42,370 nucleotides of DNA from the IMG/VR virus record IMGVR_UViG_3300032320_002033, positions 1 through 42,370 of that record; one strand, given 5' to 3'. Source of the DNA: a virus. Lineage: Duplodnaviria > Caudoviricetes. The position numbers and the translations under genes were made by a program. The notes under the pieces were generated by a model. The model did no database searches and was not told the origin of the DNA. It was given only the letters and a program-made list of their open reading frames with translations. Below, piece after piece: positions 4,063-31,412 of this stretch (position 1 is its first letter; every line of letters starts with the position of its first letter).

Positions 4063-4284
4063 ATGGCGCGCCGAATAGATAAAACACAAGTTAGAGATAC
4101 TGCAAATGTATTAAATATAAATGCAGGGCCCTTTGTCACTTTGGCTGCAAATGGTCAGATAGGAGTAACGATTTCTGCAGGCTCAGGAATTGTTGTTGCT
4201 GCAAATGGTCAGATTGGAACTGCTGCAGCTGCAAGTACAGGAGTATCTGAAACCGTTAACCCATTACTGCTATCATTATTATAA
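4063..4284 (+). CDS. Small fibre-like protein with ANGQI repeats and C-terminal NPLLLSLL
   Basis: SD GAGG. Two AANGQI repeats resemble LASNGQI in the long fibre; the C-terminus resembles that of the 28278 ORF (DPFLLSGM). Confidence 0.7.
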   Translation: MARRIDKTQVRDTANVLNINAGPFVTLAANGQIGVTISAGSGIVVAANGQIGTAAAASTGVSETVNPLLLSLL

Positions 4285-4293
4285 GGAATTAGA

Positions 4294-4623
4294 ATGCCAG
4301 CACTTTATAAAGTTTTAGGGCAGGCGATGCCCATTGCAAATACTTTTACAGATTTATATACTGTTCCTGCGGGAGCAAACGCAATTGTATCTACAATTAA
4401 TTTATGTAATACTACTGCAAGTAATGTTTCTTTTAGATTAGCAGTTAGGCCAGCAGGGGCAACATTACTTGCTAGGCATTATCTTGCATTCGAAGCACCC
4501 ATCACAGGACAGGATGCTATAGCATTATCTTTAGGTATTACATTAGGACAAACTGATGTACTAACAGGCTTTTCTATTCAAGGCAATGTGGCAATGAATG
4601 TATTTGGGACGGAGTTGACATAA
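4294..4623 (+). CDS. ~110-aa putative structural adaptor (YKVLGQ...LYTVP...FG.E family), copy 1
   Basis: Clear paralogue of 28509-28841 and of the N-terminus of 39738-40964. Confidence 0.75.
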   Translation: MPALYKVLGQAMPIANTFTDLYTVPAGANAIVSTINLCNTTASNVSFRLAVRPAGATLLARHYLAFEAPITGQDAIALSLGITLGQTDVLTGFSIQGNVAMNVFGTELT

Positions 4624-5616
4624 ATGAGTATCAAAATTACAGGATCTGGTGTAAATATAAATTTGACCGGAGGATTTTCCAGTAAAAATATTAATCAAAA
4701 AAGAATTCCTCCTATTACACAAGGTGTATCTGGAGTAGAACTACTATTAGTTGGCGGCGGTGGCGGAGCCGGATGCAGACATGCAGGCGGAGCTGCTGGC
4801 GGAGGAATGTTGGCAGGACCTGCAGTAACAATGACTCTCGCTACAGGAATACCTTATACTCTTACAATCGGTGCAGGCGGAGCTAAAAGTAATCAAAATG
4901 GTCCAATGGGTACCAATGGTGGCAATACTAGTATTGCTGGTTTTTTTACAGCATCAGGCGGCGGACTAGGCGGGCAATTCCAAGATTCTCTCACAAATGG
5001 ACTATATGGTACACCGGCAAATAATTCATCTTTGAATGGATATCCTGGAGGTTCAGGTGGCGGTTCCGGAGGACATAACTCATCTAGAGATGCAGGTATC
5101 GGAAATGGTGCAGGTAGCCCATTAGGAACAGGTTTTCCGGGTGGGACAGGGTCAGGTGGCCCAGATTGGGCAGGCGGTGGAGGCGGAGGAGCAGGCGGAA
5201 CAGGGCAAAATAATCCAAGTAATCCTACCGGTGGGAATGGAGGATTGGCAGCACCAAATAACATCACTGGTTCATGGGTTTGGTATGCAGGTGGTGGAGG
5301 TGGTGGCGGCAATCCTGGAGGATTAGGCGGAGGTACCAGTATTTCTGCACAAAAGGGCGGAGCCACAGACGGCGTCGGATCTGGCGGGTCGCCAGGAATC
5401 GCTAATACTGGAGGAGGCGCTGGAGGTGCTAGAGATACTGGCGGCAATAACGGTAATAATGGCGGTTCAGGTATACTTATAATGGCATATCCCACTGCAT
5501 TTTCAAATTTAACTGTTAGTGGAGGGTTATCCTTTACAGTAGATTTCGCAGGTAGAGCAAACTATAAAGTTTATAGTTTTACTGCCGGCACAGGCACAAT
5601 TACTTATCCGGGATAA
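4624..5616 (+). CDS. Glycine-rich (polyglycine-II type) putative adhesin
   Basis: LLLVGGGGGAG...YAGGGGGG...NTGGGAGG...GGSGILIMAYP...YKVYSFTAGTGTI; same scaffold as the fibre C-terminus. Confidence 0.75.
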   Translation: MSIKITGSGVNINLTGGFSSKNINQKRIPPITQGVSGVELLLVGGGGGAGCRHAGGAAGGGMLAGPAVTMTLATGIPYTLTIGAGGAKSNQNGPMGTNGGNTSIAGFFTASGGGLGGQFQDSLTNGLYGTPANNSSLNGYPGGSGGGSGGHNSSRDAGIGNGAGSPLGTGFPGGTGSGGPDWAGGGGGGAGGTGQNNPSNPTGGNGGLAAPNNITGSWVWYAGGGGGGGNPGGLGGGTSISAQKGGATDGVGSGGSPGIANTGGGAGGARDTGGNNGNNGGSGILIMAYPTAFSNLTVSGGLSFTVDFAGRANYKVYSFTAGTGTITYPG

Positions 5617-5618
5617 TT

Positions 5619-6002
5619 ATGGCACATTACGCATTTTTAAATGAGAATAATATCGTAACAGAGGTAATCCCCGGAAAAGACGAGGGGGAAGATGGTATTG
5701 ATTGGGAAGTTTGGTACGGAGAATTTCGAGGCCAAACTTGCAAAAGAACTAGTTACAATACGTCTGCAGGAATACACGAAAAAAATGGAACTCCTTTTAG
5801 AAAAAATTATGCAGGAGTAGGTTTTACATATGATGCACAACGAGATGCATTCATTCCTCCGAAACCTTTTCCTAGCTGGGTATTGAATGAAGAAACTTGT
5901 CTATATGATTCTCCAACTCCATATCCAAAAGACGAAAACAGAAATGTTTACGTTTGGAATGAAGAAACAGTAGCTTGGGAACGTTTGCGATACCCCGAAT
6001 AG
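5619..6002 (+). CDS. RKNYAG-family partner protein (copy 2)
   Basis: MAHYAFLNENNIVTEVI...FRKNYAGVGFTYDAQRDAFIPPKP; directly follows a Gly-rich gene. Confidence 0.8.
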   Translation: MAHYAFLNENNIVTEVIPGKDEGEDGIDWEVWYGEFRGQTCKRTSYNTSAGIHEKNGTPFRKNYAGVGFTYDAQRDAFIPPKPFPSWVLNEETCLYDSPTPYPKDENRNVYVWNEETVAWERLRYPE

Positions 6003-6012
6003 GTAAATAAAA

Positions 6013-6381
6013 ATGGCAAAATTTAAAGTATCAGAATTAACAGAAGTAACTACAGCGCAGGCAACAGATTTACTTTATATAGTACAATCTAATACCAGTA
6101 AAAGAATATCTGTAGGCAATTTATTATCTACCTATGTAACAAGTGGTAATAGTAATATAAGAATTTCTTCACCTGGCGGCAACGTCGCAGTATCTGCTGG
6201 AGGAACTACTTGGAGATTTAATCCTAACGGTACCTTTACTTTACCTATTTTATCTTCTGCTCCTGCAAATGTTACTGCGGGCAGTATAGCAATTGCAGAT
6301 GGTTCCGGTTGGAACCCTGCAAATACCGGCGCACAAACTATCGTGTGCTATATTAATAGTGCATGGACTAAATTGAACTAA
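6013..6381 (+). CDS. Small virion structural/fibre-associated protein
   Basis: N-terminal KVSELT...DLLYIV...SKRISV motif typical of phage fibre N-termini; structural-gene context. Confidence 0.6.
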   Translation: MAKFKVSELTEVTTAQATDLLYIVQSNTSKRISVGNLLSTYVTSGNSNIRISSPGGNVAVSAGGTTWRFNPNGTFTLPILSSAPANVTAGSIAIADGSGWNPANTGAQTIVCYINSAWTKLN

Positions 6382-6382
6382 C

Positions 6383-8038
6383 ATGAGCGTCGAACAAGAA
6401 TATGTTGTAGTCTTAAAAGCTGATGCGAATTACGAAGAGTTTTGGCATGAAGTTGAAACTGAAACTTCTGGTTTAGAATATATTCCAAATAGAGCAGTTA
6501 CAATTGTTAATGAGCGTATAGCTTTTGAAAGAAACTGCCATTATTCTCTTACAGACGAGGAAGCAAATTTACTTAAACAAGATCCTCGTGTAGAATGCAT
6601 AAGTGTTCCCCCAGAAAAAACAAAATTTAAAATTGGTAATTACGCTCAAAGACGAGGGTTCTATGTTAAACCTCAATCTGGTAGTGCAGGGGAACTGTGT
6701 AATTGGGGATTAATGCGTTCTGGCTATGTATTGGATACGTTTTTTACTGCAACTGTTAATGATCCTGGATATGGAAACATCTATAAGGTAAATACTACAA
6801 ATTCAAATAAAGCAAGAGCAAACGTAGTTAATTATATTTTAGATGGCACAGGTGTTGATGTAATTGTTACTGACAGCGGCATAGAATGGAATCACCCAGA
6901 ATTTAGAAATGATAAGGGGGAATCCAGAGTACAACGAATAGATTGGTTTACAACTACCGGATTATCTGGTACGCAAAATGCAAATCATTATAGAGATTTT
7001 GATGGACACGGTACGCATGTAGCATCAATTGCTGCCGGTAGAAATTACGGCTGGGCAAGAAATGCAAATATCTATTCTATAAAAATTAATGGATTAGAAG
7101 GATCAGGGGATAGTAGCACCGGCATATCAATTACAAATACTTTTGATTTAATTAAATTATTTCACAGACAAAAACCAATTGATCCTGTAACAGGTGTAAA
7201 ACGCCCAACGGTGGTAAATATGAGTTGGGGGTTCAATAATAGTTTTCAAAGTTTAGCAAATGTTTTTTATAGAGGAACTGTTAGAACAGGTTCTTCTGTT
7301 ACAGGAAACGCAGTTTTTAGATGGATGAACTATGGATTGACATCTTTAAATGATGGATCAAGTTATTATGGCAATGGATGGCTAGATTTTGTAGATACGT
7401 GGGTAGATGATTTAGTTAAAGAAGGGGTTCATGTAGTTATAGCAGCAGGTAATTGGTATATGAAAAATTCCAGTTCAACTGACCCAGATTGGAATAACTA
7501 TTATTATGAAACCTCACCTACATTTGGGCCAGTATATTATCATAAAGGAAAAAGTCCTCAAAGCGCAAATGCAGTAATAGTTGGTGCTGTTGCAGTTGAT
7601 CTTACCTTTCCAAACTACGAGCAAAAAGATACCTATAGTAATGGTGGCACAGGTGTAGACATGTATGCTCCAGGTTCGGGCATTGTTGCAGCATGTAGTA
7701 ATACGAATGTTCAGGGTGGAGTTACTTATAATTTTGATCCAAGTTTTAAACAAGTAAATCTTGGTGGTACTAGTATGGCATCTCCCCAAGTTGCAGGGGT
7801 TCTTGCATTATATTTGCAAATGAATCCGGGTGCCAAACCTGCAGAAACTAAAAAATGGTTATTACAAAATGCTTCAAATACGACCCTTTACGATGTTGCT
7901 GCAAGCTCTAATAAATACTTCACAACGAATGCTTTATGGGGAGGCAATAAGAAATATTTGTATAATCCTTTAGCAATTTCACAAGATGGCGCAATAACAA
8001 ATTTAACACTTGAAAATTGTGTTCTAACTTTAAAATAA
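6383..8038 (+). CDS. Subtilisin-like serine protease (peptidase S8) with N-terminal prodomain-like region
   Basis: Catalytic motifs VDVIVTDSG (Asp), GHGTHVASIAAG (His), AAGN (oxyanion Asn) and GTSMASPQVAG (Ser). Confidence 0.92.
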   Translation: MSVEQEYVVVLKADANYEEFWHEVETETSGLEYIPNRAVTIVNERIAFERNCHYSLTDEEANLLKQDPRVECISVPPEKTKFKIGNYAQRRGFYVKPQSGSAGELCNWGLMRSGYVLDTFFTATVNDPGYGNIYKVNTTNSNKARANVVNYILDGTGVDVIVTDSGIEWNHPEFRNDKGESRVQRIDWFTTTGLSGTQNANHYRDFDGHGTHVASIAAGRNYGWARNANIYSIKINGLEGSGDSSTGISITNTFDLIKLFHRQKPIDPVTGVKRPTVVNMSWGFNNSFQSLANVFYRGTVRTGSSVTGNAVFRWMNYGLTSLNDGSSYYGNGWLDFVDTWVDDLVKEGVHVVIAAGNWYMKNSSSTDPDWNNYYYETSPTFGPVYYHKGKSPQSANAVIVGAVAVDLTFPNYEQKDTYSNGGTGVDMYAPGSGIVAACSNTNVQGGVTYNFDPSFKQVNLGGTSMASPQVAGVLALYLQMNPGAKPAETKKWLLQNASNTTLYDVAASSNKYFTTNALWGGNKKYLYNPLAISQDGAITNLTLENCVLTLK

Positions 8039-8045
8039 AAATAAT

Positions 8046-8435
8046 ATGCAATTTGAATTGACTGAAGAAAATTTTATTATGTTCGCGGTAAAAAATTACG
8101 ATAACCCAGGTTGTCATGGGATGGATGAATTTTATGATGATTTAAAAAGATTTAAGTATATTAAACGTCTATTGCGAAAACATAATGTAGGTAAAGATCT
8201 AAAAGAAAGATTAATACTTAATCATATAATTGTACTAGGAAATTTATTTGGGGTAGAAGCAACAACTAAAATGTTGTTCTTTAAATTAGAAAAAAAGTTT
8301 TGGTCTCAGATAAAAACTTTCCTAGTATTTTTAAATTTTATGCCATTGAAAGTTATAGTATCAGCAGGTGTTATTATCTTAGATGCAGATATACCGTTAG
8401 ACGAAGATATTTTAGAAACTTTAAAGAAGATATAA
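8046..8435 (+). CDS. Conserved T4-like phage hypothetical protein
   Basis: ELTEENF..FA.K.YDNP.C...EFYDDLKRFKYIKRL...ERLILNHII pattern recalled from aquatic T4-like phages. Confidence 0.7.
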   Translation: MQFELTEENFIMFAVKNYDNPGCHGMDEFYDDLKRFKYIKRLLRKHNVGKDLKERLILNHIIVLGNLFGVEATTKMLFFKLEKKFWSQIKTFLVFLNFMPLKVIVSAGVIILDADIPLDEDILETLKKI

Positions 8436-8436
8436 A

Positions 8437-9006
8437 ATGGGAAGATTTGTAGATTCAATTATTACTTTTAGAATTTTACATCTATTAGTAACTCCCTTTA
8501 ATCAGACAGAGGCATTTCGCCGCGGCATTATAGATGCTAAAGGGAAAGAATTAAAACGAATGAGAGATCTACATTCTGTTGAAGATAGAGATGCATATAC
8601 TCTACTCCATAGATTGGTTTATAGATTAAAAAAGATTATAGAAAAAGTACCTGTAGAAAACAAAAAGTTTCTTTCCATTGCTGCAGCATATTCTCTTATT
8701 AAAGAGCATTATGAATTTGGCAAAGAACCAATTAATCTTGAAGAACAATTTCTCAATAAATTAAATGAGGATTTGGACGATGAGATTGCAGAGGTAGAAA
8801 AACTATTAAACGAGAAAAAAATGTTCACATTTAAACAATTTAATGAGGACATGGGAGCTGCTCCTGCTAATAACGCTGCAGCCAGCCCAGGGGTGGAAGG
8901 TTTAGATAAGAATGTTCCTGTAAGCAAAAAGGCACAAAAGAAATATACTGCAGGTAATACTACCGGTATCATTCAGCCTATGTTCAAAAGAGGCGGAGTA
9001 AAATAA
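8437..9006 (+). CDS. Conserved T4-like hypothetical protein (possibly head-associated)
   Basis: L.TPF..T.AF..GIIDA.G motif; internal FTFKQFNE resembles T4-type head-protein processing/targeting motifs. Confidence 0.6.
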   Translation: MGRFVDSIITFRILHLLVTPFNQTEAFRRGIIDAKGKELKRMRDLHSVEDRDAYTLLHRLVYRLKKIIEKVPVENKKFLSIAAAYSLIKEHYEFGKEPINLEEQFLNKLNEDLDDEIAEVEKLLNEKKMFTFKQFNEDMGAAPANNAAASPGVEGLDKNVPVSKKAQKKYTAGNTTGIIQPMFKRGGVK

Positions 9007-9007
9007 A

Positions 9008-9358: not shown

Positions 9359-9362
9359 ACAC

Positions 9363-9391
9363 TTGACATCTTATTGTTTTTAATATATAAT
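9363..9391 (+). promoter_or_regulatory. Consensus sigma70 promoter upstream of primase
   Basis: TTGACA (9363-9368), 17 bp, TATAAT (9386-9391). Confidence 0.85.
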
Positions 9392-9414
9392 TTAGGCTTC
9401 CTATAGGAGTCTAA

Positions 9415-10998: not shown

Positions 10999-10999
10999 A

Positions 11000-11885: not shown

Positions 11886-12245
11886 ATGACTACAAAAGTA
11901 TCCGCCGGCAATTTTTCCACCAGTATGTACGATTATGTGGCCTCTTTAAAAGCGGGCGGCCCTCGAATTGATACTATTGCTATAACTGATGCTGCATATA
12001 CTGTAACTGGTTCAAATATATTATCCGTAAATACTGGCGGTTATGTAAAAATTACTGGTTCAAATTTCCTAAGTAATACACAAGTTCTGGTTAGGCGCGG
12101 AGCAATGATTCCTGCTCTAACTATCACATATATAAGTAGTAGCGAATTGCGAGCAAGAGTTCCTGCATCAAATGTAGGAGTTAATATAGTTTATGTGGTT
12201 AACTATGATGGTAAATTCGCAGCCAACACAATAGGTTACGTATGA
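11886..12245 (+). CDS. Stand-alone IPT/TIG-like domain protein
   Basis: GPRI..I.ITD..Y.V...GGYVKITGSNF...QVLV...V.VVN.DG; aligns by eye with the N-terminus of the next ORF. Confidence 0.7.
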   Translation: MTTKVSAGNFSTSMYDYVASLKAGGPRIDTIAITDAAYTVTGSNILSVNTGGYVKITGSNFLSNTQVLVRRGAMIPALTITYISSSELRARVPASNVGVNIVYVVNYDGKFAANTIGYV

Positions 12246-15124
12246 CAACAAAACTATCAATAAACAATTTAACTGCAGAGACCCTAGCATGGATATCTGG
12301 CCCAAGAATTTCTTCTGTACAAATTACAGATGGTAATTATAATGTATTAGATGATACTGCAGCGAATGTGGGTGGCGGATATATACTTATTAATGGTAAC
12401 GATTTTGACCCAAATCCTCAAGTATTAATTGATAATATTTCGGCAACAACTGTAACAAGAGTTTCTAATAGTTTAATACGAGCACAAATTCCGCCGGCGG
12501 GATCTGCATCTTATAATGTTCTTGTAATTAATTCAGACGGTTCAACCGCAATTTTAGTTAATGGTTTGACATATTCTGCATTTCCTGCATGGATAACAGG
12601 TTCAAGTTTATCCTCAAAAGAAGCAATTGCCCCAATCAATATACAACTAAGTGCGAACGAAGCACAAAATTCTGCAATTATATATTCTTTAGCTGCAGCA
12701 AATACTTTACCCACAGGAACAATATTATACTCGAATGGATATATTCAGGGCAGGGTTACTGCAAATGCTAATGCTACATATAATTTTACTGTAGTTGCAA
12801 CTGATACACAAAATCAAGATGTATCAAGAGCCTTTTCATTACCTATAACTTTAAATACGCCTCCAGCTTGGTTAGGTCAACCTAGTATTTTACCTGTCTC
12901 ACAACCAATAGACTTATACAGTAACACAATTGTGGCAGTTGATCCAGCAATTGCATCTTACATAGTTACCTCAGGATCATTGCCACCGGGATTAACATTA
13001 GATATAGGTACCGGGGTAATATCTGGTAGAACTTCTGTAGGTAATCGCGGAACTCCGTATAGTTTTGTTGTTACTGCTACAGATACTGCTGGATTCTCCT
13101 CAACTAGAACTTTTAGCATAACTGTTGGTTCTATCGGATTTAATTTAATTCAGTTTTTATTAAAATCAAATGCTGATGCTGTTACTTCAAATAATCATAC
13201 TTTTGTGGATTCTTCAAGTAATCGTCAGATTACAAGAGTAAGTACTGCAAGTCAAGGGTCTGTTAGTCCCTTTTCTCTAACAGGGTGGAGTATTAATTTT
13301 CCGGGATATGAGAATTATATAACTACAGACAGTGGAAATGTTAAATACAATCCTGGTGCCACTGGGCCATGGACTCTTGAAACATATGTATATCCTTTAG
13401 AACAAGGTGCATTTTATGGAGTCGGTGGTGGAGGCGCATTTGGCAATAGTTTATCATTAAGTTGGATTAAATCTAGCCAAAAATTTCAATTTCAACAAGG
13501 TGATGGGGGTTCTACTCCGGTGAATATACTTGCCGCTAATACTAGTCCACGTTGCTCTTGGTATCATGTTGCAATATGTAAAGATTCAAATAACTTTATA
13601 CGAATGTTTGTCGATGGAACAATGGTAGGTTATAAATCGTATTCAGCTTCAATAAGTTCAGGCAATAGGCCAGTTATTAACGGATTGAATGATAATAATG
13701 GATTAGGTAAAGGTGGAGCTAACTGTTATGTTTCAAATTTAAGATGGGTTAAGGGTGGCGCACTATACGATAGTAATACTAGTTTTACTCCCCCAACTGG
13801 ACCTTTATCTCCTTCAGTTCCTGTAGGTAATTGCCATTTATTGGTTGGTGGTACTAATAATTTCACTGATCTTAGCGGATCTTCAAATTTAAGAATAGGT
13901 TTAGGAACTCCTAGTATTAAGTCATTTTCTCCTTTTGATCCTCAAAGCATATATATTCCTGGGGTGCAAGGAGGTAGCGGATATTTTAGTGGGTCAGGAT
14001 CATATTTAACAACAACATTACCTGGTTTTAAGACCGTATTTACGGTTGAATGTTGGGTATATCCAACACTATACATAGATAAATATATCCTAGGGGGAAC
14101 AGGAATTCCGGGACTTGGATTTCCAGCTGGAAAGTTTGGATTAGCAAGACCAGGAACCTGGTCAGTTCAAAGTATACAACCTGATCAAATGCAGTTGAAT
14201 ACATGGAATCACGTTGCATGGGTTAGACAAGGTAACGCTGCTACTGATGTAAAAATATTCCTAAATGGAAATATTGTAGCCACAGGCCAAGAAACGTATA
14301 TATACGCGGGAGGAAACGCAAGTATAGCAGCAGGGGATACTGCAGGATCTGCTGCATTTGGTGGATATATTGCTGGTTTACATATAGTCAATGGTGAGGC
14401 TTTGTATACTGCAAATACTTCACCTCCAACAAGCTTACCTACTGCTACACCAAATACAATTTTACTAATGAACTTTACTAATGCTAGCATTTACGATGCT
14501 ACAAGTAAAAATAATATATTAACTTTTGGTAACGTATTAGTGGACACAAATTCACCTAAGTATAGTGATTCGTCACTAACTTTTGATGGTACAGGAGATT
14601 ATTTAAGAATACCTAATTATTCCGGACCTGATCCATATGATAACCAATCTAAATTTACTATTGAAGGTTGGATATATCCTACACAATATCAAACCGTAGG
14701 AAATCCTACTCTTTTTATGGACGCCCAGCCAACCGCAGGGACTTTCTACTTTGGTGTAGGATTAAATGGCGGAACTCCTGGAGTAGGCAATTGCGGCAAA
14801 CCTTGTATTACTTGGTATGATGGTTCTAGTACGCAAAATGCAGTTGGTTCAAATGTGGTTGCATTAAATACTTGGACACACGTCGCATACGTAGCTAATG
14901 CAGGTGTTCTATCAATGTTTGTAAATGGTGTTTCGCAAACAGTAACAGGAACAACTACCTTAACAAATGTAAGTGGAACTACCGGTTTTTCAGTTATAGG
15001 TCAATGGAATAACGGTGGTAATGCTTATGGGTATTTTGGTAAGTTAGAAGATTTTCGTATAACAGAATCAGTTCTTTACACTAGCGATTTTATCCCGCCG
15101 ATACAATCATTACCTGCAGCCTAA
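12242..15124 (+). CDS. Virion protein with IPT/TIG, two putative Ig domains and three LamG/concanavalin A-like lectin domains
   Basis: LP.G..L...G.I.G and F.V.ATD Ig motifs; three (F/W)T.E.(W/Y).YP...W.HVA...(F/L).(N/D)G LamG-type repeats. Confidence 0.8.
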   Translation: MTTKLSINNLTAETLAWISGPRISSVQITDGNYNVLDDTAANVGGGYILINGNDFDPNPQVLIDNISATTVTRVSNSLIRAQIPPAGSASYNVLVINSDGSTAILVNGLTYSAFPAWITGSSLSSKEAIAPINIQLSANEAQNSAIIYSLAAANTLPTGTILYSNGYIQGRVTANANATYNFTVVATDTQNQDVSRAFSLPITLNTPPAWLGQPSILPVSQPIDLYSNTIVAVDPAIASYIVTSGSLPPGLTLDIGTGVISGRTSVGNRGTPYSFVVTATDTAGFSSTRTFSITVGSIGFNLIQFLLKSNADAVTSNNHTFVDSSSNRQITRVSTASQGSVSPFSLTGWSINFPGYENYITTDSGNVKYNPGATGPWTLETYVYPLEQGAFYGVGGGGAFGNSLSLSWIKSSQKFQFQQGDGGSTPVNILAANTSPRCSWYHVAICKDSNNFIRMFVDGTMVGYKSYSASISSGNRPVINGLNDNNGLGKGGANCYVSNLRWVKGGALYDSNTSFTPPTGPLSPSVPVGNCHLLVGGTNNFTDLSGSSNLRIGLGTPSIKSFSPFDPQSIYIPGVQGGSGYFSGSGSYLTTTLPGFKTVFTVECWVYPTLYIDKYILGGTGIPGLGFPAGKFGLARPGTWSVQSIQPDQMQLNTWNHVAWVRQGNAATDVKIFLNGNIVATGQETYIYAGGNASIAAGDTAGSAAFGGYIAGLHIVNGEALYTANTSPPTSLPTATPNTILLMNFTNASIYDATSKNNILTFGNVLVDTNSPKYSDSSLTFDGTGDYLRIPNYSGPDPYDNQSKFTIEGWIYPTQYQTVGNPTLFMDAQPTAGTFYFGVGLNGGTPGVGNCGKPCITWYDGSSTQNAVGSNVVALNTWTHVAYVANAGVLSMFVNGVSQTVTGTTTLTNVSGTTGFSVIGQWNNGGNAYGYFGKLEDFRITESVLYTSDFIPPIQSLPAA

Positions 15125-22434: not shown

Positions 22435-23454
22435 ATGAAAATAGAAGGTAGAGTAGCAATATCAGGAAGATTTAGTACAAAACCTCCGACAGCGGCGGCA
22501 ATTGTTACTGGTCAACAAGCTTACGTAACCCCCGGTATATATTATTGGACAGTACCAGACAACGTAACAAGTGTTTCGGTAGTTTGTATTGGCGCAGGCG
22601 GAAGCGGCAAATCTGGTTCAGTAGGTAATGATAGTGGAAGCAAAGATGGTGATGCAGGGGTAGGAGGAGGCGGTGGCGGATTAGGATACGTTAATGATAT
22701 TCCAGTTGTGCCCGGCACAACACATATGATTATAGTTGGAGCCGGAGGAACAGGTTCCATAACGCAAGGCGGAGGCAGCGCAGGCCAATCTAGTTATTTT
22801 AAATCCAATGCAGGTGCAAATATTATTATTGCATATGGTGGAGGATTTAATTCGAACAATACCGAAGCGACAGGCGGATTGCTAGGTGGCGCCGGAGGAA
22901 CATATTTTGTAAGTAACGTATATGGTACGTATGGCGGAGGCAACGGCGGCAATGGTGGATTTGCTGAAAACAATTTTGCAGGAACGGGTGGCGGTGGTGC
23001 TGGTGGTTATTCTGGCAACGGCGGCAATGGTGGTTATGTAAGTGGCACGTATAATGGAACTAATGGTTCCGGTGGCGGTGGAGGTGGCGGTGCTGGTTTT
23101 GAAGGCGGAGATGGTTCAGGTGGTAGTGGCGGCGCCGGCGGCGGTACTGGAATTTTAGGAGAAGGTTCCAGTGGTATAGGCGGGACATATATGACTTCAA
23201 ACGCACCTGTAGGTGGAGGAACTGGCGGGTCAGGAGCTCCAGCAGGAGGCGGAGGTGTGTATTCTGGTGCAGGGGTGAGTCAAGGCGGTACAGGTGGTTC
23301 GTATGGCGGCGGTGGAGGTGGTGCTAACAACTTTGATAATGTATTCTTTGGCGGAAATTATGGTAGATCAGGTGATGGAGCGGGAGGTGCCGTAAGAATT
23401 ATTTGGCCAGGAAATACTAGAGCATTCCCAACAACCAGCACAACAGATCTATAA
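22435..23454 (+). CDS. Glycine-rich putative adhesin (second subtype)
   Basis: TPG.Y.WTVP..VTSVSVVCIGAGG...GGGGG...GAGGAVRIIWPG..R.FP. Confidence 0.72.
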   Translation: MKIEGRVAISGRFSTKPPTAAAIVTGQQAYVTPGIYYWTVPDNVTSVSVVCIGAGGSGKSGSVGNDSGSKDGDAGVGGGGGGLGYVNDIPVVPGTTHMIIVGAGGTGSITQGGGSAGQSSYFKSNAGANIIIAYGGGFNSNNTEATGGLLGGAGGTYFVSNVYGTYGGGNGGNGGFAENNFAGTGGGGAGGYSGNGGNGGYVSGTYNGTNGSGGGGGGGAGFEGGDGSGGSGGAGGGTGILGEGSSGIGGTYMTSNAPVGGGTGGSGAPAGGGGVYSGAGVSQGGTGGSYGGGGGGANNFDNVFFGGNYGRSGDGAGGAVRIIWPGNTRAFPTTSTTDL

Positions 23455-23464
23455 TAGGTAAGAT

Positions 23465-24157
23465 ATGCAGATAACAGGCCCAGGTTTTATTTTCGAAGGT
23501 GCAGGTATAAATGTGTCTCCTGTTCCTCCAGATTTAGGGGTTATAAGTGGAGATGCAAATGTATCAATAGGTACACAAGTTGCCTGGACATCTAATACTT
23601 ATTTTTATACAACAAACTCAAGTACAGTTAGAGGATCAGATTTTGTATATGATACCAATAATATGGTATGGCAAGTATTTTATGCACATAAGCAAATACG
23701 TCTTTTTACCGGAGCAAATCGTTGGGGACCTATTCCACGTAGTAGCGGAAGTAATACTATAGCGTTATATCAAGCCTCATCTACAGCAACTAATACCAAA
23801 TCATCTTTTAATTCCAATGTAGATGTTGCATTATCTGCTGCTATTTCTGCTAGTTATAGTGCGAATACTTTATATCAAGCAGCAACACAGACTGCAGTAA
23901 CTATTCCAGCAAAAAGATATTTTTTACTTGGAATAACAGGTGGCCCTTTTTATAGAAGTTTCTTAAGGACTGCGAATAACATAACTGCAGTTTTTGGGGG
24001 TGAAGCAGTAGTTACCGCCCTTAATGAGGTGTATGTTGGCCCTTGGCCCTCAGGGCCTGGTCGAGGCATTCCTACTCTTTTAGGAGGCAATACCGCGTCT
24101 TATGTTAGATATACAAGTAACATATATTATTCTGCGTTTAAATTTGAAATCGTATGA
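23465..24157 (+). CDS. Hypothetical virion protein
   Basis: S/T/N/Y-rich beta-type composition; N-terminus MQITGPG resembles MSIKITGSG of 4624. Confidence 0.55.
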   Translation: MQITGPGFIFEGAGINVSPVPPDLGVISGDANVSIGTQVAWTSNTYFYTTNSSTVRGSDFVYDTNNMVWQVFYAHKQIRLFTGANRWGPIPRSSGSNTIALYQASSTATNTKSSFNSNVDVALSAAISASYSANTLYQAATQTAVTIPAKRYFLLGITGGPFYRSFLRTANNITAVFGGEAVVTALNEVYVGPWPSGPGRGIPTLLGGNTASYVRYTSNIYYSAFKFEIV

Positions 24158-24993: not shown

Positions 24994-25001
24994 TATAAAT
25001 A
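24994..25001 (+). promoter_or_regulatory. T4 consensus late promoter TATAAATA
   Basis: Exact gp55-type consensus, 25 nt upstream of structural gene 25027. Confidence 0.8.
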
Positions 25002-25026
25002 TAAGGGATACTAATTAGGGAAGAAA

Positions 25027-25425
25027 ATGGCTCTAACTAAAATAAAAGCATCAAGTATAGATTCCATACCAGTTGTCGTAATGGACGATATTTCCTTTCA
25101 GTTTGATGGAGATAAAACTGTATTTGGCTTAACGTTGGATTATGCAAACATCTATACCAAAATGGGATACACTATTGTTGATTCAAAAGATTTGGATGTG
25201 TCTATAAATTTTTATCCTATTTCACCATACGTAAGACAAGCAACTTACCCTTGGATAACAACTTTTGATTCATACAAAGGATTTAGGGTTTCTGGAGATA
25301 ATATTCTTTTTTATCAAGCACCGCCTTCAGGAAGCCATTGTTCGATTATATTTAGAAACAGAAGCCAAACAGCACAACAAAGGCGATACCCCTTTCACCC
25401 GGGTACCATAGCTCTAGGAGATTAA
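25027..25425 (+). CDS. Virion structural protein (single copy of the FDG..T.F.L...VSG..I.F..APP domain)
   Basis: Same motif pattern as the three central repeats of the long fibre. Confidence 0.65.
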   Translation: MALTKIKASSIDSIPVVVMDDISFQFDGDKTVFGLTLDYANIYTKMGYTIVDSKDLDVSINFYPISPYVRQATYPWITTFDSYKGFRVSGDNILFYQAPPSGSHCSIIFRNRSQTAQQRRYPFHPGTIALGD

Positions 25426-25431
25426 AAACAA

Positions 25432-28275
25432 ATGGCAAAGCATGTAATTTTAGAACAGTATACGTTTGATCCTGCGACAAGGACTGTTACTATTAGAGGT
25501 AAAAATATTCGCAGAGAACAGTTACTATTAATTACAAATGTAACTAGAAATACAGTAATTTTTAATTTTAGTGATCCTAACTTAGGTGCCGCGTCGTATA
25601 CGAATAGTATAACATTGGGTGGTATCAATGCTGGTCTAGAAAATACAATAATTGTATTGTCATATAATACATCTTCAATGGCAAGTACAGATAAGTTATC
25701 TATCTTAACTGAAGAAACTTATCAAGAAATAACTCCAAGTGAAACTTTATTGGACCCTGTTGGGAAAATGAGAGTTTCCGAACCACAGTCGTTAATTGAT
25801 ACAGACTTTGAATACGGAATTCAGCCGACTAAATGGGAAACTTTAACATTATTAAATTTTAGACCTTCTGCTTACTATAATTCTGAAGGAACTATAACGT
25901 TTTCTAACATAACAGGTTCTTTCCAAGGAAATAATCAAGTTATAGTTAATCTTGCTAATACTCAACTTAACGGTATAGACTTATTTGTAGGTCAGCCAAT
26001 ATTTGTTCAAGGTTCAAGAGATCAAGCAAACGTAGATGGTTGGTTCACGATCCATTCAATTGTTCCAAATTCTTCATTCACATATAAGACAATAGGCAGA
26101 CCTGTTTGGGATGCAAATGATCCTAATAAGACTTATGTTTTTGCAGGACAATATTATTCTAATGCAGGGATTAGCTTAAACAATGTTAGCGTTTCATCCA
26201 ACGTTATTTTTATCTCAACAACTAATGCGCATGGTTTACGACCAGGCAATGGAATTTGGTTGCAAAATATAACCGGTTCGGGAACAATTCCTCAAGAACT
26301 TAATGGATCTTGGGTAGTATCAGCTACTCCGACATCTAATACTTTACTAGCAAATGCTTATAATTTTTCCGGGGCAGGTCCATTAGTTGCCACAAATGCC
26401 CCATTCGCATCTAATATTCTATACATGAGACCCTTTAGTACTGTCGTACATAGACCATTCGACGGTGGCGTGTCTATGAGTACATCAACGTCTTCCCAAG
26501 GTTATCAGACAATTAGACAAACACGTAGATATTTTAGATACCAGTCGGGTAAGGGAATACAATTTAGTACAGGTAGTATTATGAAACCTGCATTAACCGT
26601 AGAAAGTATGACATCCTTCGGCTCGAATGTTACTGTATATTCTAAATATCCGCACAACATTAATGTAGGTTGTAATGTTATCGTATATGGCGCAGTTGAT
26701 GCAGGGTACGACGGAGCATATCCAGTAACGTCTGTTGCAAATACTACAGTATTTACATATCAATCAGGAAGTGCACCAACCGTAACTAGGGCAACAGGTT
26801 ATCCTATTAATGTACATGCTAATAATTGGTACGGATCTAAAAATCGCCTTGGTATGTTTGACGACCAAAACGGATTCTTCTTTGAGTTTGACGGTCAGCA
26901 ATTATATGTTGTAAAACGTTCAAGTACACAACAAATGCCAGGCGTAGTTACAGTAAATGCGCAAAGTCCAGTGGTGACCGGAATCGGTACAAGATTTTCA
27001 GAAAATTTAATTCCTGGAGATTTTGTTAGTATTAGAGGAATGACATATTTAGTCGAATCTATACTTGGCGATACGCAAATGGTCGTTAACCCAGAATATC
27101 GAGGTGTTAATGCTTTTAATTGCACCATAAGTAAAATTGTAGATATAAGAATACCGCAATCGCAATGGAACATTGATAGAATGGATGGTACCGGAGCTAG
27201 TGGTATGACCTTAGATTTAACCAAGATGCAGATGTTTTATATAGATTATTCTTGGTACGGTGCTGGAGCTATTAGATTTGGCTTTAAGAATAACCGAGGC
27301 GAAGTTGTTTATTGTCATAGAATTATAAACAATAATCAAAATACCGAAGCATATATGCGTTCAGGTAACATGGCAGCTAGATATGAGACCAGCACTCGTG
27401 TACCATATTCAGTTTTAGCTGCAAGTTTATCTAGCGCAGCATCGACCGGCGCAACTCTAACTCTTCGTGATGCAACAGACTTTCCGAATGTAGGTGTTAT
27501 TGTTGTGACAGGATCAGGTAATCAAGGATCGCCTATTGAGTATATTTCATATAGTGCAAAATCTGCGAACACTTTAACAATTAATCAAAGAGCAGTATTT
27601 GGTGGAGTTGCTTCAGCAAATACATTTAATGTTACAAGTACTTCACCGGTTTCAGTAGAACTTTCTTCTCCGCAAAATGCTAGTTCATTAAATCATTGGG
27701 GATCTTCAGTTATAATGGATGGTAAATATGATGATGATAAATCTTTGATATTTAATATTGGTCAAAATAATACTTTGATTAATTTAGCAGCAAACAGAAG
27801 AGCGCCTATTATAAGTTTACGTATTTCTCCCTCAGTAGATAGTGGTTTAACTGGCATATTGGGAACCAGAGAACTTATTAACAGAATGCAGTTAGTTCTA
27901 CGACAAATGGATGCTGTTACAACTGGTCCATATCGTGTAGAAGTTATTCTAAATGGTAGACCGTCTGATGGAGCTTGGGCACCTGTAGGTGGTTCTAGTT
28001 TAGCACAGTACGCATTCCATGCAACAGGTGCAACTATTATAGGTGGAGAAAATATTTTCTCATTCTTCACTCAATCATCTGGACAGACTCAGCAAGATAT
28101 GCAGTTGGTTCGAGATTTAGGTACAAGTATTTTAGGTGGCGGTAACTCGTTTTTTGCAAATACAGTAACAGGAAGATTCCCAGACGGACCAGACATGATC
28201 ACAGTTTGTGCTACTCCGTTCTTCGGCAATACTTCTATTAATTCTCGTATCAGCTGGACTGAAGCACAGGCATAA
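25432..28275 (+). CDS. Large virion structural protein (cyanophage-like baseplate/fibre-associated family)
   Basis: YTFDP...LLLITNV, D.VGK.RVS.PQSLIDTDFEYG.Q.TKWE, RQTRRYFRYQSGKG, IDYSWYGAG.IRFG and C-terminal SWTEAQA. Confidence 0.75.
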   Translation: MAKHVILEQYTFDPATRTVTIRGKNIRREQLLLITNVTRNTVIFNFSDPNLGAASYTNSITLGGINAGLENTIIVLSYNTSSMASTDKLSILTEETYQEITPSETLLDPVGKMRVSEPQSLIDTDFEYGIQPTKWETLTLLNFRPSAYYNSEGTITFSNITGSFQGNNQVIVNLANTQLNGIDLFVGQPIFVQGSRDQANVDGWFTIHSIVPNSSFTYKTIGRPVWDANDPNKTYVFAGQYYSNAGISLNNVSVSSNVIFISTTNAHGLRPGNGIWLQNITGSGTIPQELNGSWVVSATPTSNTLLANAYNFSGAGPLVATNAPFASNILYMRPFSTVVHRPFDGGVSMSTSTSSQGYQTIRQTRRYFRYQSGKGIQFSTGSIMKPALTVESMTSFGSNVTVYSKYPHNINVGCNVIVYGAVDAGYDGAYPVTSVANTTVFTYQSGSAPTVTRATGYPINVHANNWYGSKNRLGMFDDQNGFFFEFDGQQLYVVKRSSTQQMPGVVTVNAQSPVVTGIGTRFSENLIPGDFVSIRGMTYLVESILGDTQMVVNPEYRGVNAFNCTISKIVDIRIPQSQWNIDRMDGTGASGMTLDLTKMQMFYIDYSWYGAGAIRFGFKNNRGEVVYCHRIINNNQNTEAYMRSGNMAARYETSTRVPYSVLAASLSSAASTGATLTLRDATDFPNVGVIVVTGSGNQGSPIEYISYSAKSANTLTINQRAVFGGVASANTFNVTSTSPVSVELSSPQNASSLNHWGSSVIMDGKYDDDKSLIFNIGQNNTLINLAANRRAPIISLRISPSVDSGLTGILGTRELINRMQLVLRQMDAVTTGPYRVEVILNGRPSDGAWAPVGGSSLAQYAFHATGATIIGGENIFSFFTQSSGQTQQDMQLVRDLGTSILGGGNSFFANTVTGRFPDGPDMITVCATPFFGNTSINSRISWTEAQA

Positions 28276-28277
28276 CA

Positions 28278-28496
28278 ATGGCACATTTTGTTTCTAGAAC
28301 CCAACCCCCTAACGGGGCGTTGGGGGATGAATGGTTTAACCCAGCAAACAACAAGATATATAAGTTAGTAGTATATAACGGAGTATCTGTTGGATGGCAG
28401 GAACAATTGACTGCAAATAGTGTAGCTACTGTTTTTGCTACTAATACTTTTAACTATGATCCTTCCATAGATCCGTTTTTATTATCTGGAATGTAA
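28278..28496 (+). CDS. Small fibre-like protein ending in DPFLLSGM
   Basis: P.....GDEWFN motif of fibre proteins; C-terminal P-F-L-L; precedes the ~110-aa adaptor. Confidence 0.7.
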   Translation: MAHFVSRTQPPNGALGDEWFNPANNKIYKLVVYNGVSVGWQEQLTANSVATVFATNTFNYDPSIDPFLLSGM

Positions 28497-28508
28497 CAAG
28501 GAAATTTA

Positions 28509-28841
28509 ATGCCTACAAGATATAAGATTTTTGGTCAACAGTCGCCCGGACCCAACACGTTAAGTAGATTATATACTGTCCCTTTGGCACAGAGTGCAGT
28601 TGTTTCTACAGTAACTGCATGTAACTATAATGTAACTAATACCACTTTTAGAATAGCGCTTGTTCCTAGTGGAAGTCCTTTATTTCCTAATGCATATATA
28701 GCATATGACACAGCATTACCTGCGCAAGATAGCATTGCACTTTCCTTAGGCATTACAATGGGAGCAAATGATTCTATTCAAGTATTTGCTTTTTCGGGTA
28801 ATGTTGCCTTTAATGCATTTGGTGCAGAGCAATTCAACTAA
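28509..28841 (+). CDS. ~110-aa putative structural adaptor, copy 2
   Basis: MP..YK..GQ..P..NT...LYTVP....A.VST...CN...FR.A..P.G...QD.IALSLGIT.G..D...FS..GNVA.N.FG.E, shared with 4294. Confidence 0.78.
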   Translation: MPTRYKIFGQQSPGPNTLSRLYTVPLAQSAVVSTVTACNYNVTNTTFRIALVPSGSPLFPNAYIAYDTALPAQDSIALSLGITMGANDSIQVFAFSGNVAFNAFGAEQFN

Positions 28842-28853
28842 TTGAAATGAAAA

Positions 28854-29780
28854 ATGAGCACAAGAAGATTTTCGACAAGAAATCACGCAGGTGAAGGTAA
28901 GCGTGCAAATTCACGTAACAATCGCTCAGATATATCTGCTCTAGGGTTCTCCGGTCCTCCAGCAATAGATTATTATCTGGTTGGAGGTGGTGGCGCAGGC
29001 AACGAAGGTGGCGGTGGTGCCGGCGGCGTCTCTTCAGGAACTATTCAAATAGGAAGCGGTGCATCTCCCAACGTAAAAGTAAATGTCTCAGTAGGTGCAG
29101 GCGGAACTGCCGGTAGTAGAGGTAGCAATACTACAGTTTCAACTCCTGTTTTTACGGGGTATGGAGTAGGCGGAGGAGGAGAGCAATCACCTGGTGGATC
29201 AGGAGGCGGCGCAAGACGAGACGTACCAAATAATGAAGGCAGAGGTTTAGGATTTCCCGGACAAGGTAATCAGGGCGGAGACGGTTCGGGTAATGAACAT
29301 GCTGGCGCAGCAGGAGGCGGTGGATTTTCCCAAGCAGGAAATAGAGGTGCTTCAGGCGGCGGTGGTCCAGGAGGAGAACGAGGCGGCAAAGGCGGTAACG
29401 GTACAACCAATAATTGGATAGGACCAACTATAGCTTATGCCGGAGGCGGTGGCGGCTCTTCTCAAAATGATATTTACGCACCACCTAGCGAAGGTGGTGG
29501 AGGCGGTGGCGGAGGACCTGGCAGAAATGGTGCAACCACTTTTGGCTTTGCGGGAAATGTAAACACCGGAGGCGGTGGCGGTGGAGCACAAAGTGGTCCA
29601 GGCGGTAATGGCGGATCTGGTACTGCGATCCTAAGATATCCTACAGCATATACAGCGGTTGCTATTACTGGAAATGTGGAAACGTTCAATAATGTGAGTG
29701 GTTATACTGTATATAAATTTAACGGTCCAGGTATTCTAAGTTTTACTCCTCTTAGAAATTATGTTGATCATTCGGATTAA
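28854..29780 (+). CDS. Glycine-rich putative adhesin
   Basis: Basic N-terminus; IDYYLVGGGGAG...YAGGGGG...NTGGGGGG...GGSGTAILRYP...YTVYKF.GPG. Confidence 0.75.
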   Translation: MSTRRFSTRNHAGEGKRANSRNNRSDISALGFSGPPAIDYYLVGGGGAGNEGGGGAGGVSSGTIQIGSGASPNVKVNVSVGAGGTAGSRGSNTTVSTPVFTGYGVGGGGEQSPGGSGGGARRDVPNNEGRGLGFPGQGNQGGDGSGNEHAGAAGGGGFSQAGNRGASGGGGPGGERGGKGGNGTTNNWIGPTIAYAGGGGGSSQNDIYAPPSEGGGGGGGGPGRNGATTFGFAGNVNTGGGGGGAQSGPGGNGGSGTAILRYPTAYTAVAITGNVETFNNVSGYTVYKFNGPGILSFTPLRNYVDHSD

Positions 29781-29788
29781 GAATAGTT

Positions 29789-30982
29789 ATGAGTATTACA
29801 AATTTCAATAGTAGAAAAATTAGTAGAACTAGATTCAATGATAGAAATCTACCTAACATCTTTTCTAAATTAGATACCTCACGACCAGTATTCATAGAAT
29901 ATGCTTTAGTAGGTGGTGGCGCAGGTGGGGGACAAGGGGGCGGTGGTGCTGGCGGTGTAGCCAGAGGAACTCTAATATTAACTACTGGTTCTAATTCTAC
30001 AGTATCAATATCTATTGGCGGTGGTGGCGGAGTAGGTAATACTCCTACTGCATCGGGTCAAGCAGGTATTCACGCTGGTTCTAATGGCAGTCCAAGTTCA
30101 ATAACTACCCCTGCAGGTAATGTGGGATTAACCTCATTGAGTATTATTGCTGCAGGCGGTGGTTCGGGTGGCGGTGCGCCAGGTGGAGGCAATCAAGGTA
30201 TGGGATGGCCTGGTGGTTCAGGTGGAGGTCATGGGCGGGATGCTAGTAATAGTATATTTTCCGCTAATCTATATGGTTTAACCCCTAATATACTACAAGG
30301 AAGTCCGGGCGGGTTTCAATCAACCGCAGGTATTTTTGGTGGGAGCCCAGGTGCTGCTACAAATCAATTAGGTGGAGCTGCAGGTGGCGGAGGTTATTCA
30401 CAAGCAGGAAGCCCAGGTCAAGCTGGAGGCGGAGATAACACGCAAGAAATTGGCGGTTATGGTGGTAATGGTTTAATTATAAATTGGAGATGGGCAAACG
30501 AAGCATTCGCTGGAGGTGGAGGCGGTGCATCTCAATCTGAAAACGGCGCAGGTGTAACTACTAACACTCCAGGTAATCCTACTAGAGGCGGTGCATTTAT
30601 GGGAGGTGTAGGTGGCATAGGTGGGGGCGGATGGGGAGGTGGACCAAAAGGTGCAAATGTTCTATATGGTGCATCTATTGCAGGTACAGGTGGTGGCGGC
30701 GGAGGAGCAACATCTCCAGGAATGAGCACTGCGGGATCTGGCGGTAGATGTATGATTCGCTATCCGGTGATATATGGTAATGCATATTCAACTGCAGGGT
30801 CTCCGAATATTATGTTAAGTCCAGATGGGAATCTTTCAAATAATCAAGGGTATTGGGTATTTACATGGACAGGACCCGGATCAATAACTTTTCCAGGTGG
30901 TCCTGCGGGCAATCAAGGCATTTCTGATAACGACGTAAGAGCTTATCTTTCTGGGGCTTTCCCGCCCGCAGGAGGAATTTAA
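29789..30982 (+). CDS. Glycine-rich putative adhesin
   Basis: Basic N-terminus; IEYALVGGGAGGG...FAGGGGG...GSGGRCMIRYP...YWVFTWTGPGSI. Confidence 0.75.
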   Translation: MSITNFNSRKISRTRFNDRNLPNIFSKLDTSRPVFIEYALVGGGAGGGQGGGGAGGVARGTLILTTGSNSTVSISIGGGGGVGNTPTASGQAGIHAGSNGSPSSITTPAGNVGLTSLSIIAAGGGSGGGAPGGGNQGMGWPGGSGGGHGRDASNSIFSANLYGLTPNILQGSPGGFQSTAGIFGGSPGAATNQLGGAAGGGGYSQAGSPGQAGGGDNTQEIGGYGGNGLIINWRWANEAFAGGGGGASQSENGAGVTTNTPGNPTRGGAFMGGVGGIGGGGWGGGPKGANVLYGASIAGTGGGGGGATSPGMSTAGSGGRCMIRYPVIYGNAYSTAGSPNIMLSPDGNLSNNQGYWVFTWTGPGSITFPGGPAGNQGISDNDVRAYLSGAFPPAGGI

Positions 30983-30998
30983 CTTATGAGAGGATAAA

Positions 30999-31412
30999 AT
31001 GGGGCATTTTGCAAAAGTAATAAACGGCATAGTTGATACTGTCATAGTTGCTGATCAAGAAGATATTGATAGTGGCAGACACGGCGATATATCTCAGTGG
31101 ATTCAAACAAGTTATAATACCAGAGGTGGAGTACATTATATCTCAGGTACAAATCAACCATCTGATAATCAAGCAAAAGCTTTAAGGAAAAATTATGCAG
31201 GTCCTGGGATGACGTACGATGCACAAAGAGACGCATTCATACCAGTAAAACCATATCCAAGTTGGATATTAAATGAACAATCTTGTACCTGGGATCCCCC
31301 GGTACAGCTACCCGCAAATGATGGTCAACCGCACCCGCAAGGTGGTGCAATTGGCTATAATTGGGACGAGGAGAATCAACAATGGGTACTAAACTGCCTA
31401 CCACTAGAATAA
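30999..31412 (+). CDS. RKNYAG-family partner protein (copy 3)
   Basis: MGHFAKV...WIQTSYNT.GG.H...LRKNYAG.G.TYDAQRDAFIP.KPYPSWILNE..C.W.PP. Confidence 0.8.
   Translation: MGHFAKVINGIVDTVIVADQEDIDSGRHGDISQWIQTSYNTRGGVHYISGTNQPSDNQAKALRKNYAGPGMTYDAQRDAFIPVKPYPSWILNEQSCTWDPPVQLPANDGQPHPQGGAIGYNWDEENQQWVLNCLPLE

Follow-up and report, generated by a model that had tools for sequence, protein, structure and literature searches.

A C-terminal fibre tag and a small adaptor protein as a putative joint for modular fibre tips in aquatic tailed phages

What is built by a run of small genes that one phage carries twice in the same order? The viral contig IMGVR_UViG_3300032320_002033 (Duplodnaviria; Caudoviricetes) holds two such cassettes, at 4063-6002 and 28278-31412. 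Each encodes a short fibre-like protein (A), a protein of about 110 residues (B), one or two glycine-rich proteins (C), and a protein with an RKNYAG motif (D). We analysed the whole contig of 42,370 bases (hereafter the window), in which the main genes all lie on the + strand and which appears to be a piece of a T4-like aquatic phage genome. We conclude that the cassettes are real and widespread, and that they probably encode modular fibre tips with a tag-plus-adaptor joint. Their parts probably work together as a connector, with A supplying a tag, B an adaptor, C the tips, and D a helper.

An earlier note, made from the letters of the window alone, had described this gene order, and every open reading frame (ORF) of the two cassettes was recovered at its coordinates; together with their structural neighbours they are:

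164..3688, + strand: long fibre-like protein of 1174 residues with a glycine-rich tip domain fused at its end (residues 881-1125; PF21722, E 5.7e-20), that is, a C fused to a shaft
3676..4053, + strand: D0, RKNYAG protein behind the fused tip, likely start ATG 3688 (phrog_7759, E 6.6e-36)
4063..4284, + strand: A1, likely extender of 73 residues, tag VNPLLLSLL at 4255-4281
4294..4623, + strand: B1, putative adaptor of 109 residues, YKVLGQ subfamily, predicted eight-stranded single jelly roll (phrog_1276, N-terminal part)
4624..5616, + strand: C1, putative tip protein of 330 residues, 31% Gly (PF21722, E 6.4e-11)
5619..6002, + strand: D1, 127 residues, predicted Tfa-like fibre-binding domain without a helical trimerisation domain
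25432..28275, + strand: virion structural protein of 947 residues directly 5' of A2 (phrog_5838, E 3.5e-259)
28278..28496, + strand: A2, likely extender of 72 residues, tag IDPFLLSGM at 28467-28493
28509..28841, + strand: B2, putative adaptor of 110 residues, 46% identical to B1
28854..29780, + strand: C2a, putative glycine-rich tip, 31% Gly (PF21722, E 1e-7)
29789..30982, + strand: C2b, second putative glycine-rich tip, 29% Gly, a paralogue of C2a with no Pfam match of its own
30999..31412, + strand: D2, RKNYAG protein of 137 residues ending cassette 2, one D behind two tips (phrog_7759, E 8.3e-29)

The proposed kinship of the B and D genes was borne out. B1 and B2 aligned with a score of 269 (best of 500 shuffles, 49), and D1 and D2 with a score of 231 (best shuffle, 54). 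Within the cassettes, every one of the three C/C pairs beat all 100 composition-preserving shuffles, with C2a and C2b scoring 484 against a best shuffle of 217. The 22 kb separating the cassettes contain mostly unrelated genes, named from their translations as NrdA/B-like, primase-like, and others.

Both cassettes had been placed behind a large structural gene. This holds for cassette 2, where the 947-residue protein is a possible attachment site for A2. Cassette 1 is separated from such a gene by a third C-D pair, which the earlier note had missed: the C-terminus of the 164-3688 product followed by D0, which is 65% identical to D1. The 164-3688 product matched phrog_2295 and tail-fibre PHROGs, and is probably truncated at its 5' end, because the frame is open up to the contig start.

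Taken as a pair, A1 and A2 showed no significant likeness (46 of 500 shuffles scored as high), and the resemblance of their tails became real only across genomes, through the tags counted at B loci. Using an alignment of B, we fetched 79 viral loci with 76 distinct B genes; these were the best-scoring 80 per scan, are mutually related, and had identical sequences alone removed. The gene directly 5' of B ended in a hydrophobic tag at 69 of the 76 distinct B loci, compared with 45 of 1189 other genes, the former being an in-sample count as the pattern was written after the tails had been seen. Many of the 45 control matches were tagged fibre genes themselves, located a few genes 5' of a B. Among the seven untagged loci, one had a variant tag directly 5' of B, five had a tagged gene further 5', and the seventh shows a tagged gene in its locus list.

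In its general form the tag consists of three hydrophobic residues, a small residue, Gly, and the stop codon, with the consensus PFLLMG. It is conserved at the protein level, as every synonymous codon occurs at the Phe and Leu positions, all six for Leu among them. The variant FLLSLL, as in A1, also stands at A-gene ends in two other loci (L005 and L006). A had been described as a protein of about 72 residues ending in P-[LF]-L-L. Both features fit A1 and A2, but the literal ending P-[FL]-L-L occurred in only 26 of the 76 genes 5' of B, and the 64 complete tagged A proteins ranged from 42 to 1674 residues (median 191), with 26 of them no longer than 130. On these cross-genome counts, the 72-residue length and the PFLL motif were dropped as defining features.

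Upstream of the tag the A proteins vary. The 60 residues before it formed 29 clusters among 68 segments (9 collagen-like), and the cluster of the A2 body also contains the segments that precede the tag in five longer A proteins. By their sequences, A1, A2, and similar short A proteins are likely extenders, each combining an N-terminal arm of its own with the tag. In L018, L033, L042, L078, and L081, the order is a long tagged fibre gene, a short tagged extender gene, and B. Several of these loci have a second B subtype nearby, which we read as two sockets of different class in one locus. In L019, L021, L024, L069, and L077, the region 5' of B contained, by eye, fibre genes ending in LGGM and then glycosyltransferase- or methyltransferase-like starts, which suggests that fibres with this tag may be modified.

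The tag proved to vary with the type of B. Profile iteration brought out B subfamilies (YKVLGQ, MAxPNIV, and MANTFKN) that were homologous by profile comparison (hhalign 97.5% and 68.7%). New loci were fetched for two subfamilies (80 and 120), with tag patterns taken from few earlier examples, and B genes with fewer than 130 bases upstream were excluded from the class counts. MAxPNIV-type B genes lay behind an xxFG tag at 69/76 new loci. MANTFKN-type B genes lay behind an AIALG tag at 79/114 and behind the xxFG tag at 4; of the other 31 loci, inspected by eye, about 9 end in AIALGG and about 14 resemble the end of a second B. YKVLGQ-type B genes followed FLLMG at 71/79 old and 4/5 new loci, and the FLLMG tag was found before none of the other B types. 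The class-tag control gave 30/2316.

A matching signal was present on the other side of B. The first 14 residues of the gene 3' of B predicted the B class in 193 of 246 cases with near neighbours left out of training, where shuffled labels gave a mean of 33% and a maximum of 39%. On the arm profile of the YKVLGQ class, C2a scored 4.4 and C2b 11.3, as is typical of the class. Glycine-rich genes behind other connector domains begin with other arms, as seen in a listing without counts. At the level of sequence, there are thus three B classes, each with its own tag and its own downstream arm.

B itself was predicted (AlphaFold2, mean predicted local distance difference test 89.3) to be an eight-stranded single jelly roll. 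Its best fold matches were nucleoplasmin-type cores (Z 9.8-10.2), followed by the KHP40 cement trimer (Z 9.9, root-mean-square deviation (rmsd) 2.6, 102 aligned residues) and one HFTV1 turret chain (Z 9.3, rmsd 2.8, 96 aligned). At E<=0.001 there were also 127 matches to the model among predicted viral proteins, almost none of them named, and B1 has 6428 relatives. A PDB sequence search with the B profile returned nothing credible, and the ESM Atlas yielded only unnamed viral clusters for B2 and D1. In a scan of bacterial and archaeal genomes with one B protein, a single-sequence search that reaches close relatives only, four loci were found, one of them strong (65%, on a 3.6-kb contig of a metagenome-assembled genome).

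Fusions tie B directly to head-like domains. Among 73 longer proteins with a B domain, six consisted of B plus a glycine-rich domain, some were tandem B-B proteins, and one was a tail fibre running through the tag into B. The last, found on a single contig, may reflect a lost stop codon. Many B proteins of 267-370 residues (P0257, P0282, and relatives) have a large insertion flanked by the first strand of B on one side and its C-terminal part on the other, which we read as a third way to mount a domain on the adaptor. The window holds a third B, also missed in the earlier note:

39738..40964, + strand: B3, with a phrog_1325 domain joined to its B domain (about residues 5-121)

The B domain of B3 was recognised by the B profile (E 5e-18 and 2e-24) and its head by phrog_1325 (E 3.5e-29). 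The head is weakly fibrinogen-like, with tenascin-C chains matching at E 0.0026 over 50 residues. No tag-bearing gene lies beside B3; a 2-oxoglutarate (2OG)-Fe(II) oxygenase gene is upstream and the surrounding genes are non-structural. B3 is a candidate for an alternative head supplied in trans.

The C proteins each contain 9-16 glycine runs. PF21722 (Gly_rich_2; gathering score 24.3) was exceeded by the 164-3688 product (72.7 bits), C1 (43.1), and C2a (32.7), while C2b gave no match. A PDB sequence search with C2a found none either. The N-terminal 30-75 residues ahead of the glycine-rich domain contain no Trp in C1, C2a, or C2b. By analogy with gp38 and Pam3 gp24, the C tips may bind the host receptor.

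C and D form a tight pair. We fetched 79 loci with D; 7 of 82 D genes were dropped for lack of upstream DNA, leaving 75. D stood directly behind a glycine-rich gene in 65 of these (background, 26/570), and a glycine-rich gene lay within 1.5 kb of D in 73. Where D was found through B loci instead, 58/67 were directly behind a glycine-rich gene. The D subtype followed the last strand of C (52/65 vs 5/58), with patterns drawn from earlier examples. Between B and the next D there were 0, 1, 2, or 3 glycine-rich genes at 4, 49, 11, and 3 of 67 loci, respectively, the upper count being bounded by flanks of 4-6 kb; one D followed two or three tips at 14/67. In L085, L093, L098, L102, and L109, a conserved protein of about 200 residues is often encoded between the glycine-rich gene and D. 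In phage DSL-LC04 an annotated 2OG-Fe(II) oxygenase occupies that position.

The D1 model (AlphaFold2, mean predicted local distance difference test 94.8) contains a single helix (29-37); past residue 40 it consists of strands and loops alone. Among 48,161 chains, it gave only 10 matches at Z>=2. First was Pam3 gp25 (7ypx_a, a 162-residue chain) over residues 3-57 (Z 4.4, rmsd 2.9, 55 aligned), and second was Mu Tfa (5yvq_B; Z 2.5, rmsd 3.4, 55 aligned). The predicted likeness to Tfa is weak, yet it was expected beforehand and fits the gene position. A PDB sequence search with the D profile gave nothing credible. Since the gp25 helical trimerisation domain appears to be missing from D, D is unlikely to act in trimerisation.

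These two couplings do not add up to a fixed four-part unit, as the earlier note had supposed. Only 16 of 54 B loci contained all four parts. Gene-order conservation, assessed with the B and D profiles, was tight for A-B and for C-D, and loose for the joined unit. D occurred within 4 kb past a YKVLGQ-type B at 21/54 loci. Looking 3.5 kb upstream of D, we found a YKVLGQ-type B at 5/58 and any B at 17/58. B and D had been expected not to occur apart from tagged and glycine-rich neighbours. B is mostly preceded by a tagged gene and D mostly by a glycine-rich one, but the gene after a YKVLGQ-type B was glycine-rich in 40/66 cases and non-glycine-rich in 26/66. After MANTFKN-type B genes in metagenomic loci it was glycine-rich in 0/46, and the cultured phages Melnitz and CRP-143 combine this B type with C and D. 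C-D pairs were also seen behind different connector domains, with different arms, and B can bear heads of other kinds. By gene order, the system resolves into two loosely joined modules that appear to recombine, A-B (a putative socket) and C-D (a putative tip plus helper). The three B patterns were estimated to occur in about 2600, 3900, and 1600 stored viral stretches, and D in 6600.

Cultured phages place the genes in the tail region of myo-, sipho-, and podoviruses. The full order occurs in the siphovirus phiPsal1, where the tape-measure gene and a putative tail gene precede it, in the T7-like podovirus CRP-143 behind tail tubular proteins A and B, twice in the T4-like myovirus Melnitz, and in DSL-LC04 with two genes between C and D. 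In phiPsal1 (MG835450, L001:15857-16753) the glycine-rich C gene is unannotated, with two out-of-frame hypothetical ORFs in its place. Tag and B with no D nearby were found in HTVC010P, HMO-2011, S-TIM5, phiW-14, RHph_I1_18, S-CAM1, and S-BM3. Overall, B follows annotated tail fibres or comes right after tail-tube, hub, or baseplate genes. The Melnitz paper, in its accessible text, remarks solely on variable tail-assembly genes (PMC9004378).

Published proteomes, cited as far as their accessible text and tables go, bear on the presence of B in virions. In S-SCSM1, ORF27 is homologous to B (E 3.8e-16). It is labelled 'virion protein' and is flanked by two fibres that are labelled likewise (PMC9602691), the 5' one of which ends in PFILALGGN. 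For this phage 45 proteins were identified by mass spectrometry (PMC9602691), and the label presumably marks them. The T4-GC345 fibre begins with a B-like segment (E 6.8e-8 over 51 residues; PMC3037559). In a table that has lost its column heads, this fibre is marked as detected in 1/3 proteomes and its 5' neighbour in 2 (PMC3037559).

We propose the following assembly. The ends of a fibre or short extender A, three at a time, would offer a short hydrophobic tag. The tag likely enters an oligomer of the predicted jelly-roll adaptor B, which in turn likely holds one to three glycine-rich tips C through their N-terminal arms. D would be a Tfa-type folding chaperone of the tips and probably leaves the virion. 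We assume B to be a trimer on two grounds: the collagen-like nature of some A proteins, and an observed maximum of three tips. This modular connector is the explanation we favour as probably correct. The earlier docking scheme of A into B and B to C, with D assisting C, finds partial, comparative support in the tag, the arm, the fusions, the linkage of D, and the predicted Tfa-like fold of D; direct docking is putative. A complex prediction with three copies of B2 and three of the last 32 residues of A2 (70-row alignments) scored 0.01 against a mark of 0.32; the controls were unfolded, making this evidence neither way.

The fold of B brings in a different location. If B were a capsid decoration or turret-base protein, the cassette would build head spikes. 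The KHP40 and HFTV1 fold matches are in keeping with this, as is the HFTV1 turret base, described as a hexamer holding a trimeric head (bioRxiv 2024.12.09.627619, accessible text). We regard it as quite unlikely, since a common jelly roll tells little about location, and B adjoins fibre, tail-tube, hub, and baseplate genes in cultured phages, is coupled to the tag of the 5' fibre, and recurs in unrelated virion types. We give similarly little credence to B as a transient chaperone that binds the fibre tag to start trimerisation and then departs, the tips attaching otherwise. Chaperone genes such as Tfa or T4 gp38 are indeed small and usually lie directly behind the fibre gene (PMC9608196; PMC6851490), and the A-B link (69/76) is tighter than that between B and a glycine-rich tip (40/66). 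Against a departing B stand the 'virion protein' label of the S-SCSM1 homologue, the fusion of B to head domains in several proteins and in B3, and the match between B class and downstream arm class. A further variant keeps the A-B-C joint as proposed and has D stay with the tip after maturation, capping it or acting as a co-adhesin. Tfa of Mu and Ur-lambda stays in mature phages (PMC9608196), and the apparent lack of a gp25-like trimerisation domain is compatible with a lasting role. One D often stands behind two or three tips, as for a shared helper, and Pam3 gp25, the nearest fold, is reported absent from virions (PMC9608196), so a retained D seems rather doubtful.

The tag might also be no joint at all. 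Were it a by-product of translational coupling, with a ribosome-binding site in the last codons of A, the genes would merely be co-inherited. GGA is the Gly codon in 42/61 tags, and a Shine-Dalgarno-like word falls within the tag codons in 27/65 cases. This account is very improbable given the free codon use at the Phe and Leu positions, the retention of the tag where B has its own Shine-Dalgarno sequence past the stop or where the tagged gene lies kilobases from B, and the different sequences of the MAxPNIV- and MANTFKN-class tags. Codon use and the tags kept away from B led us to reject the view that a ribosome-binding-site artefact fully accounts for the tag.

Alongside these Shine-Dalgarno-like words, several results weigh against the connector we favour. 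With a profile score of -2.3, the C1 arm is atypical for its B class; on that profile 5.7 was reached by a ThyX-like gene that is unrelated. The loci are related, so neighbouring genes that descended together account for part of the class matching. The fold matches fix neither the oligomer nor the location of B. The B of S-CBWM1 stands alone, with neither a tagged gene nor a tip gene beside it. The glycine-rich C and D homologue of S-SM1 are absent from the virion proteins listed in the searched supplement text of PMC3037559. For D, Foldseek found nothing in the PDB at E<=0.001, and 26 D proteins contained neither the Tfa Pfam family nor any other Pfam family.

A broader version of the proposal is possible, and we advance it tentatively. 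Aquatic tailed phages of three tail types may share a sequence-coded connector standard, made of an eight-residue tag, a cognate hub, and a cognate arm in at least three classes. One hub would take up to three different adhesins, several tagged fibres would share one hub gene, and orphan hub-heads such as that at 39738-40964 would plug in. If so, a single phage could build virions with mixed, swappable receptor-binding heads. If the connector reading holds, short-joint recombination would explain the movement of tips among myo-, sipho-, and podoviruses. Receptor-binding genes would become findable by a rule (tag, B, arm, D) covering phages of SAR11, OM43, roseobacters, freshwater actinobacteria, and cyanobacteria, and the small protein joint would offer a testable model for fibre-tip exchange. 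In freshwater and marine phages of very high abundance, the genes concerned lack annotation or carry a wrong one.

Other features of the window surround the cassettes:

22435..23454, + strand: C3, lone glycine-rich protein with no B or D adjoining, of uncertain membership in the system
24994..25001, + strand: TATAAATA, preceding the gene run 25027-31412
NrdA/NrdB-like, primase-like, and ThyX-like genes, named from translations, together with DUF7207 and several virion PHROGs

C3 fell slightly below the PF21722 cut-off (23.7 bits) and was negative on the arm profile. At 22435-24157 it is accompanied by a neighbour of 230 residues, and the starts of both resemble that of C1 (M-x-I-x-G); from sequence, they perhaps represent another arm class. 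The window contains two sites of the type TATAAATA, both on the + strand, which we take to be the T4-type late promoter consensus. Cassette 2 closes the gene run that starts behind the site at 24994. Directly 3' of D2, at 31444-31472, is a 12/12 sigma-70 site (TTGACA-17-TATAAT), overlapped by a 9-bp hairpin at 31423-31445 that was noted by eye; the terminator scan did not flag this hairpin.

Two genes past cassette 1, at 6383-8038, is a subtilase gene (Peptidase S8, phrog_9158), and S-BM3 likewise has a peptidase S8 gene just 5' of an A-B pair (L171). The adjacent virion-like genes 11886-12245 and 12242-15124 share IPT/TIG domains and similar MTTK starts, the latter also carrying an Ig domain and three laminin-G-like domains. 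They are a probable second adhesin class. At 35141-36573 lies an adjoining pair of predicted secreted or lipoprotein genes (DUF4384 domain; LPP20-like).

How does the system compare with those already known? We found no description of the tag-adaptor-arm joint in the literature, subscription journals lying mostly outside coverage, and the accessible text of PMC13243795 and PMC12801897 was not relevant to B or D. The parts are catalogued, as phrog_1276 (B, N-terminal part), phrog_7759 (D), and phrog_2295 and PF21722 (C). The PHROGs for B, C, and D are listed with function unknown, and their entries are silent on the tag, the arm, and the linkage of the parts. The earlier note had known of no characterised system of this organisation. 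This holds for the A-B joint, but C-D has a solved analogue in Pam3 gp24-gp25 (7YPX), where a gene for a glycine-rich receptor-binding head is likewise followed by a chaperone gene (PMC9608196).

In Pam3, the N-terminal domain (1-55) of gp25, a protein of 162 residues absent from virions, binds the glycine-rich fibre head as a beta-sandwich that grips the TNF-like/glycine-rich junction (PMC9608196). This domain is the best structural match of D. Where C has just a short arm, gp24 has a helical N-terminus of its own, through which it forms trimers and attaches to the baseplate (PMC9608196). The D model also differs in having no helical C-terminal domain, and Pam3, in the accessible description, has no B adaptor or tag. 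Mu Tfa (5YVQ), the second-ranked fold match, holds the same position behind a receptor-binding gene, whereas D is without a Pfam or PDB sequence match and apparently without the conserved C-terminal helical region.

The predicted fold of B is shared with the KHP40 cement trimer (7DOU) and the HFTV1 turret (8QPG), whose base is an oligomer plugged into the capsid and carrying a glycan-binding head (bioRxiv 2024.12.09.627619); from its length, chain TD would be the base protein. At 9-11% identity these matches do not establish homology. Unlike these capsid-borne proteins, B is genetically tied to fibre ends. In S16 gp37-gp38 (6F45), as proposed here, a separate polyglycine adhesin is clipped hydrophobically to a trimeric fibre end (PMC6851490). 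There, gp38 binds gp37 directly through three Trp, one monomer per fibre (PMC6851490), whereas here B would be interposed, the fibre tag has about eight residues, and up to three tips stand behind one B. The system resembles both Pam3 gp24-gp25 and S16 gp37-gp38 and is a member of neither, having no gp38 Trp domain and no Tfa helical domain.

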